The notes: a model not told the origin generated them from the letters alone. Shown: positions 49,865 through 50,986, counted from the stretch's first letter. The stretch is DNA of 64,000 bases from Clostridia bacterium (GCA_022797635.1 JAAWKZ010000002.1:17188-81187), one strand, 5' to 3'. Made by a program: numbers and translations.

Positions 49865-50986
49865 CTAAATACTAAATCCAGGCGCGACGCCACGGGTATA
49901 GCTCGCGTTGTGACTACCGTTAGCGTTACCAGTGCTGCCGACAAGGCAAAAGTATCCGTTGCCGTCGTAACCTGGTGAACGAAGCCACCAGCGGACCGTA
50001 CTACCCGAGGAATTTGGTTTCTTTTGACGGCCCGTGCCCGAATCGTTCCATGCGTCTGTTACTCCTTGATAGTATTTATACTGACTTCCTTCTGATGTGA
50101 TTGCATATCCATATGTTCCGCTTCCATTATATCCATTATTTACTATTTCACTTGCTGCTAATAACCATAAGTAATCATTAGATGTTGCTATACTGTTTGC
50201 ATTATCATATGTTCCAATATATTTCTTCTTTACTTGTTTGATATATAATTTATTATTTAAGTTTGCTCCTAAGCCTCCGATTTCTCCACTTTGTATTGCT
50301 GCATTTGTTGTATATCCGTTTAAATCTTTTCTCATTTGAGTATTTGCCCAGCCATTTTCATTTGTATTAGTTGAATTCATTGGCATGTAATTTTCTCCTG
50401 TCATGAAATCTAAGAACTCAAATGAAATACTTGCCTTGTTATGGTTTTCTCCATAGGCCGCTGTATTAACTAAGTCGTCGTGCTTAAATCCTAGCGCTCT
50501 TACTATTCTAACTTCTCCTTTATATTCTACTTCAAACAAATCTCCTGCACTGATGGTATACTTTTTGTTATCTACTATTACTGTTACTTTCTCTGTATCG
50601 CTTGTGATGGTATCATCTTTTGCTATTTCTCCTGCTATTTTTTCGATTGTTGGCCAATCTGATTTTATTTGCTCTACTGGTACTTCCTCTGGCTCTTTTG
50701 GAGTTTCTGTTCCATTGATATATTGATTTACCATATTATCTACTTGATTCACATATTCTTGTTCATTTTTTACGGCTTCTGCTGTTTTATCTTTGGCATC
50801 TTGCGCCTTTTTTAAGATACTATTTTCTCCCATTGTATACATGATTGTGATTCCTGCTAGGATTAATAATACCACTATTGTTACTATTAGTGCTACAAGG
50901 GTTATCCCAGTTGTAGCATCTTTGATGCATACAAGTGGGTTACACTGGCAAGAAATACCTATTTCTTTTTCTAATTTTCTCTTCAC
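49865..50986 (-). CDS. Pilin-like (class III signal/hydrophobic N-terminus) secreted protein with a C-terminal WWLRSP...GVAPGF lectin-like module
   Basis: GITLVALIVTIVVLLILAGITIMYTMGENSILKKAQDAKDKT N-terminal module. The C-terminal ~63 codons are abruptly GC-rich and dominated by NNC codons. Confidence 0.65.
   Translation of the reverse strand: MKRKLEKEIGISCQCNPLVCIKDATTGITLVALIVTIVVLLILAGITIMYTMGENSILKKAQDAKDKTAEAVKNEQEYVNQVDNMVNQYINGTETPKEPEEVPVEQIKSDWPTIEKIAGEIAKDDTITSDTEKVTVIVDNKKYTISAGDLFEVEYKGEVRIVRALGFKHDDLVNTAAYGENHNKASISFEFLDFMTGENYMPMNSTNTNENGWANTQMRKDLNGYTTNAAIQSGEIGGLGANLNNKLYIKQVKKKYIGTYDNANSIATSNDYLWLLAASEIVNNGYNGSGTYGYAITSEGSQYKYYQGVTDAWNDSGTGRQKKPNSSGSTVRWWLRSPGYDGNGYFCLVGSTGNANGSHNASYTRGVAPGFSI
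50690..50908 (-). repeat. Paralogous N-terminal module (copy A), shared with gene 54085..55254
   Basis: By eye, about 80% nucleotide identity with 55023-55224 across the segment encoding GITLVAL..LILAGITIMYTMGENSI.KKAQ.AK.KT.EA.KNEQEY. Confidence 0.6.

Follow-up and report, generated by a model that had tools for sequence, protein, structure and literature searches.

The GC-rich, NNC-codon-rich 3' end of a gene in this Clostridia sequence is probably a binding tip that was written by a diversity-generating retroelement (DGR) and is now static. The tip ends the DUF6273 domain of a protein belonging to a family of at least 18 pilin-like proteins, and the mechanism that accounts for it is a known one, not a new one. 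The window, by which we mean the whole 64,000-nt stretch under analysis (29.9% G+C), corresponds to C33:17188-81187 of a 1.02-Mb, 37-contig, 80%-complete Clostridia metagenome-assembled genome (MAG). The features of the locus, in window coordinates, are the following:

49822..51116, no strand: block formed by the promoter, the gene and the next 43 nt, which this genome has in common with strain L024 and which is missing at the syntenic site of two congeners.
49865..50986, minus strand: gene for a 373-aa protein; its hydrophobic N-terminus resembles that of pilins and is followed by a helical stalk and, at the C-terminal end, by the DUF6273 domain, which the variable-type tip closes.
49874..50005, minus strand: 132-nt variable-type segment of 44 codons (GSTVRWWLRSP...GVAPGF), homologous to seven template repeats on contig C31.
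49878..49891, minus strand: GGCGTCGCGCCTGG, a G/C-rich block that closes the variable segment on its 3' side and includes a mini-hairpin; candidate G/C part of an IMH-like homing site.
50006..50070, minus strand: GC-rich stretch (~50% by sliding G+C) directly upstream of the template homology.
50837..50908, minus strand: hydrophobic pilin-like segment GITLVALIVTIVVLLILAGITIMY, residues 27-50 of the translation.
51073..51102, minus strand: promoter-like site TTGACA-18-TAAAAT with an upstream TG, from a consensus scan (11/12 matches).

The switch to a GC-rich composition at the 3' end of this gene, which was the starting point of the original prediction, is real, and the codon string and peptide (RWWLRSPGYDGNGYFCLVGSTGNANGSHNASYTRGVAPGF) quoted in its support were correctly read. 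In 150-nt windows, G+C reaches 0.56 at 49900-50049; it is 0.25-0.33 on both sides of this peak, and 0.25-0.37 when the flanks are taken together with the bulk of the gene. For the last 64 codons (49868-50059), G+C amounts to 55.2%, and for the other 309 codons to 33.2%, while third-position C rises from 39/309 (13%) in the body to 24/64 (38%) in the tail (Fisher p = 1e-5). The variable segment itself (49874-50005) stands at 58% G+C against 33% for the gene body. The GC-rich zone starts near 50070, approximately 65 nt upstream of the point at which template homology begins (50005), and alignments of paralogues and sister-lineage targets reveal that the intervening stretch is conserved among paralogues and absent from every template, the leaders of the templates being different.

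A hairpin had also been proposed for the extreme 3' end of the gene. The sequence GGCG-TCG-CGCC is indeed present on the minus strand (49881-49891), but its stem spans only 4 bp and the 100 nt around and downstream of it show no folding beyond that of shuffled sequence (z = -0.23). This mini-hairpin is the Gly-Val-Ala-Pro coding block, which is conserved in every template and tip of the genome, and the G/C-rich block that includes it matches the equivalent block of templates and clean tips (GGCGTTGCGCCTGG) at 13 of 14 positions.

The gene sits between rny and a DUF4912-GH57 pair, and no phage genes were seen around it. In two congeners (G009 and G021), the whole gene and its promoter are absent, with ~10-30 nt separating the flanks in the interval from the DUF4912 gene to rny; no direct repeats are evident flanking 49822-51116. 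Two further stretches of the neighborhood were noted. Between a ymdB-like gene and rny lies a 516-nt intergenic stretch (47582-48097) with 44-45% G+C in a 30% G+C genome, which has no Rfam match at E <= 1 and contains a plus-strand 110-aa ORF (47695..48027) without a Pfam match. On the minus strand at 54085-55254, the window encodes a paralogue whose N-terminal module is the pilin-like one (82% identity to 50710-50912 across 203 nt) and whose C-terminal domain is different, with no DUF6273 match and no G+C jump; a motif related to the one upstream of the 373-aa gene is found at 55337-55388 (repeat D7), upstream of this paralogue.

The Pfam DUF6273 (PF19789) model matches residues 204-373 of the 373-aa protein (E = 1.3e-11, model positions 25-170 of 172), with a score of 45.1 bits that passes the curated gathering threshold of 23.5, and the variable tip occupies the extreme 3' end of the ORF, inside this domain. 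In gut phages, DUF6273 has been modelled as a C-type-lectin-like domain with a hypermutated hairpin, its C-terminal end being the DGR variable region (PMC10743442, PMC11792537). Sequence and profile searches of the PDB returned no solved relative of the domain. AlphaFold2 models are of low confidence (pLDDT 55 and 61), and Foldseek comparisons yielded nothing significant; their best match was the Thomasclavelia ramosa IgA peptidase 9qa6 (E = 0.08), the N-terminal domain of which is annotated as DUF6273.

Homology searches identified 860 homologues at E <= 1e-10, and the hydrophobic segment GITLVALIVTIVVLLILAGITIMY is nearly invariant over 71 homologues. We considered whether this N-terminus identifies a type IV pilin or pseudopilin, which are recognized by a Gly followed by Phe/Met at +1 and Glu at +5, as well as by an N_methyl domain and by neighboring pilus-assembly genes. 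The hydrophobic stretch (GITLVALIVTIVVLLILAGI) has no Glu at +5: its sequence reads G followed by ITLVA, placing Ile at +1 and Ala at +5. Furthermore, no N_methyl Pfam match was found in the 373-aa protein, a PDB profile search gave only weak pilin matches (E 0.5-0.8), and the neighboring genes (rny, ymdB-like, DUF4912 and GH57) include no pilus genes. With the class III signal, the N_methyl domain and the pilus genes all missing, the protein does not classify as a type IV pilin or pseudopilin and resembles pilins only in its shape. It is presumed to act at the surface or as an adhesin.

A search of the genome for the RVT_1 domain identified a reverse transcriptase (RT) of 371 aa on contig C31 (C31:24278-25393, minus strand; E = 7e-15), which also matches a PHROG phage reverse transcriptase family (E = 4e-74). 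This RT contains the sequences LGAHTSQ and YVDD, both of which we take to be DGR-typical motifs. The following elements accompany it:

C31:31829..29010, minus strand: ORF for a 939-aa target that shares the pilin-like N-terminus as well as the DUF6273 end and tip.
C31:28887..28462, minus strand: 141-aa Avd-like gene, so named for its position and size only.
C31:25393-28464, minus strand: seven tandem template modules with a period of ~450 nt, between the Avd-like gene and the RT.

Each module comprises a 129-132-nt AAC-rich template (TR) followed by ~210 conserved nt. The templates are ~50% G+C and contain 8-13 AAC codons, with the exception of module 2, which contains 2. Covariance-model searches with the Rfam RT-2 RNA (RF03077) produced seven full-length matches, one 3' of each template, with scores of 93-118 bits that exceed the gathering score of 40; four pairs of the predicted structure present compensatory changes between units, and the last RNA of the array ends at the RT start. 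The Avd-like gene has no Pfam, NCBIfam or PDB match. The tip of the adjacent target, at C31:29019-29150, differs from TR1 by 12 A mismatches and 1 non-A mismatch. The RT motifs, the Avd-like gene, the template and the adenine-only adjacent target by which a DGR cassette is recognized are hence all found on C31, which carries a complete DGR: target, Avd-like gene, seven TR and RT-2 modules, and RT. The original prediction had called for a template of ~100-150 bp near an RT or Avd gene, and this search was borne out by the seven templates and the RT of C31, in the same genome. On its 115-kb contig, the variable region of the window comes no closer than ~48 kb to either end, and the cassette lies at least 20 kb from both ends of C31; since both sit deep inside their separate contigs, the two are far apart. 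An RT with 98% identity occurs in 3/51 genus representatives, whose assemblies contain 7, 2 and 1 template modules.

Module 2 of the array (C31:27853-27984) is adenine-poor and resembles a variable region, with 26 A compared to 38-42 A in the other templates. It keeps an intact RT-2 RNA, presents 10-14 non-A mismatches to the current templates and is a clean product of none of them; one possibility is that this template was overwritten in its turn and has drifted since. The genome also encodes a second RT (C22:58-1327), adjoining a whiA-like gene and split by a frameshift into ORFs of 230 and 222 aa. It is of the group-II-intron type and has no template-like sequence, and it was rejected as the source of the tip.

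We queried the genome by blastn with a 236-nt sequence covering the tail, which returned 27 matches, and aligned the tip codon by codon to TR1-TR7. The window tip aligns gap-free to TR1-4 and TR7, and it thereby presents homology to templates lying beside a DGR RT in its own genome. The best template is TR3, with 18 adenine and 12 non-adenine mismatches. These mismatches are enriched at template adenines (18/39 A sites vs 12/93 others, p = 7.5e-5). The block GGT TAC GAC GGC of the tip is common to TR3 only, plus a TR3-type template in strain L048, while the 5' end of the tip (ACG GTC NNC TGG) follows TR4. Furthermore, the 17-nt arm TGGTGGCTTCGTTCACC shows full identity to the templates, and GCGCCTGGATTT agrees with them at 12/12 positions. 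A mosaic of several templates was rejected as an explanation of the remaining differences: even a position-by-position choice among templates leaves seven sites unmatched by all of the genome's own, six of them at third codon positions. When templates of sister strains are pooled with these (17 distinct templates), the best fit still leaves 11 non-A mismatches.

Published cut-offs for assigning a DGR target allow A-to-N changes only, with minor exceptions (PMC5758913), or ask that substitutions of other kinds stay below four (PMC6642488). Since even the best-fitting of 17 templates leaves 11-12 non-A mismatches, the window tip departs from this rule, which is followed by two controls of the same genome (C31 target and TR1, 12:1; tip on contig C28 and TR7, 18:2). 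The proposal that mismatches would be confined to template adenines is therefore sustained as an enrichment and not as a confinement. This departure bears on the principal alternative explanation, namely that the C31 DGR still acts on the tip in trans, so that the tip would be a live target, either rewritten rarely or written from a template missing in the 80%-complete assembly. We consider this explanation unlikely, though deserving of real weight: both homology arms and the 13 matching positions of the G/C block are intact, and the tip retains the G+C of clean tips. The 11-12 non-A mismatches and the seven sites incompatible with all own templates speak against it, yet template sets vary among strains, which implies that cognate templates turn over and that a lost or unassembled one could explain the non-A mismatches. 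Remote targets are, moreover, documented for non-phage DGRs (PMC5758913, PMC4891356).

To assess variation of the tip among strains, we examined the 90% protein cluster of the 373-aa protein, which contains one other full-length member, from L024 (ENA ERZ13692134). The L024 contig is syntenic, encoding the DUF4912 gene, the 373-aa gene and rny, and exact-pattern scans of metagenome contigs and genome contigs identified no further strains with the gene. The two sequences differ by 62 substitutions in 2431 nt (2.6%). Of these changes, 33 fall in the 981 nt that precede the tip within the gene, and a single one, which is synonymous, in the 132-nt tip. At strain level, the window tip hence presents no hypervariability between constant flanks, as judged from two consensus sequences. 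The near-absence of change in a 2.6%-diverged strain argues against a live target; the static reading draws on these two consensus sequences, with one other strain carrying the gene.

As a positive control, we analyzed ten sister-lineage loci (L044-L053) with an identical Avd protein. Their flanks downstream of the adjacent tip are near-identical, and five are also identical for ~230 nt upstream, but the loci display at least six different adjacent tips, differing massively among samples. Four of these tips match distinct template types, the TR3 type included, with 0-1 non-A mismatch, and the template sets themselves differ between strains. Because sister-strain tips vary between constant flanks and match distinct templates, this DGR family is active in nature, with several templates writing one target.

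The remote members of the family behave differently from the adjacent targets. Among ten 90% clusters of remote short pilin-like paralogues in related bacteria (including P0010, P0011, P0019, P0032, P0037, P0052 and P0097), 8/10 have 0 variable tip positions, while the bodies vary at 2-56. Since cluster tips are invariant while bodies vary, remote tips are generally fixed and apparently selected, which again disfavors a live target in the window. Similarly, the C19b paralogue of the genome under study is 71% identical to P0010 over the body and matches it at 42/44 positions of the tip, so that conservation can be stronger in a tip than in the remainder of its protein.

Within the genome, the 18 paralogous tips form a continuum, from clean pairs, through the window tip (fifth best), to tips with 27-34 non-A mismatches. 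The nine best-matching tips have a G+C of 49-61%, and the most diverged paralogous tips of 38-48%. Because the same protein scaffold is encoded at 38-44% G+C in paralogues, the G+C of the tip is a historical mark of template origin and not a protein requirement; template-derived G+C appears to decay in this AT-rich genome. The C28 tip, apparently remote from the cassette, is a clean TR7 product (18:2), from which it follows that trans writing occurs in this genome and, in favor of a live target, that distance from the cassette does not prevent a tip from being a clean product. Many paralogues of the family sit at contig ends.

The sequence downstream of the tips also separates the window from several of its paralogues. 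An element of ~55 nt (GTCTGAACYTTAYAAAACAATRYGTTTTAAAYACRCAAAAAGGCA...) is conserved 3' of the stop codons in five paralogues (C28, C24, C9, C16 and C6b), and a portion of it is able to pair with the variable region at its 3' end. Downstream of its own stop codon, the window keeps only a diverged remnant of this element. In C24, C28 and the C31 target, folding predictions pair the sequence CCTGGCTTT with an inverted repeat located 55-75 nt further downstream, with weak z values of -0.4 to -1.5; such 3'-end pairing is only a hint. No inverted repeat or hairpin is predicted downstream of the window tip, and this, together with the divergence from the shared element, is a further argument against current rewriting. 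Taken together, the 12 non-A mismatches, the seven template-incompatible sites and the single synonymous change relative to L024 lead us to prefer the static reading. The original prediction of a candidate variable region of a DGR acting in trans is thus upheld in that the segment is of DGR type and lies at the C-terminal end of DUF6273, with RT and templates on another contig; what it lacks is the adenine-only relationship of an assigned target and any amino-acid difference from the tip of the 2.6%-diverged strain.

An origin outside the DGR, either through a horizontally acquired or recombined foreign cassette or through the amino-acid composition of the domain, is very improbable. The abrupt compositional jump and the status of the whole gene as an insertion relative to two congeners are compatible with such an origin. 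However, the tail aligns over its full length with seven templates beside an RT, with adenine-biased differences, the remainder of the inserted gene is host-like in composition, and the paralogues that encode the same scaffold at low G+C indicate that the protein does not need high G+C. The foreign C-terminal cassette put forward in the original prediction is consequently unnecessary, since the ~50% G+C templates of the genome's own DGR account for the G+C. Lastly, an assembly chimera, in which the consensus of a heterogeneous population would have generated artefactual non-A mismatches, is scarcely credible: the source is a MAG, and the paralogues at contig ends reveal assembly trouble with this family, but the independent L024 assembly, made from another sample (ERZ13692134), gives the same 132 nt bar one synonymous base, with 61 other differences on the contig.

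Under the preferred reading of a DGR-written and now static tip, the tip sequence would descend from the AAC-rich, ~50% G+C templates of the C31 DGR. Adenine-mutagenic reverse transcription of a TR3-type template, followed by replacement of the 3' end of the gene by the cDNA, would have yielded a retrohoming product with NNC/NNT codons and an abrupt G+C jump in a 30% G+C genome. This rewriting may have taken place where the gene now lies, or else in an ancestral paralogue of which a later duplicate came to occupy the site. The tip would afterwards have remained static, gathering some ten ordinary changes, mostly at third codon positions, and would have been kept as one fixed specificity, the target adjacent to the cassette being the copy that is visibly rewritten. 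Both the historical retrohoming event at the tip and its present inactivity are presumed from these comparisons.

More tentatively, these elements could form a two-tier system, a possibility to which we give limited credence. The RT and the seven interchangeable modules would rewrite the adjacent gene, acting as a workshop in which different strains apply different templates to the same tip, and successful tips, the window tip among them, would be archived as dispersed, independently promoted pilin-like DUF6273 genes under purifying selection, spread over a genome of ~1.2 Mb. The juxtaposition of a hypervariable adjacent tip and many frozen dispersed tips suggests how retroelement diversity may become fixed as a gene family, and the graded decay of G+C and of adenine-only mismatches over the 18 tips could serve as a natural clock for this fixation process. 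The setting is a lineage with a reduced genome, most closely related to Clostridia MAGs from the mouse gut. For annotation purposes, a sudden shift to GC-rich sequence with NNC codons at the 3' end of a gene is a reliable sign of DGR origin in an AT-rich genome, however distant the RT and templates may be, but it is no proof of ongoing hypermutation. Furthermore, the seven-module array, with an RT-2 RNA in each module, provides a useful case for studying how one RT chooses among templates.

Several known systems share features with the one described here. The DGR targets of gut phages (the tentaclins of nd4/nd12, PMC10743442, and those of Faecalibacterium prophages, PMC11792537) contain the same Pfam DUF6273, with the variable region at its C-terminal end. 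The phage targets, however, lie inside phage cassettes beside the RT, whereas the window gene is chromosomal, remote from the RT and without sign of current mutagenesis. As in Bordetella phage BPP-1 (mtd-VR, avd, TR, spacer, brt), the order of elements on C31 is target, Avd, TR and RT, with a structured RNA between template and RT, and both systems present an AAC-rich template, adenine-only differences (12:1 at the adjacent C31 tip) and a variable region whose 3' end is formed by a G/C-rich block. In contrast to BPP-1, C31 contains seven TR-plus-RNA modules instead of one and the genome many dispersed paralogous tips, of which the window tip does not obey the adenine-only rule and is without a predicted downstream hairpin.

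The closest precedent is the Treponema denticola DGR (TvpA; Nimkulrat et al. 2016, PMC4891356), by virtue of its leftover remote target. In both cases, a chromosomal, non-phage DGR has several target paralogues located at a distance from its RT, and some variable regions correspond to a type of template that has ceased to be cognate, read in T. denticola as leftover "orphan" targets. The targets are surface proteins with a lectin-type tip, and both the surface role and the lectin-type fold are presumed for the proteins studied here. The two systems differ in the carrier of the tip, which is DUF6273 on a pilin-like stalk here and an FGE-sulfatase domain in T. denticola, as well as in the number of tips (at least 18 here, compared to 7 remote targets) and in the seven templates of the C31 cassette. 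They differ also in the state of the leftover tip, in which 19/21 changes fall at adenines in T. denticola and 18/30 in the window.

With regard to template number, our literature search did not find a regular seven-module template array described, though multi-template DGRs are (PMC6642488). Stenotrophomonas sp. SKA14, with two TRs and six variable regions (PMC6642488), resembles C31 in combining a single RT with multiple templates as well as multiple variable regions. Unlike multi-template DGRs of this type, C31 presents a regular array of seven modules with a ~450-nt period, each with its own RT-2 RNA, and sister strains of the C31 DGR write different template types into the same adjacent target.
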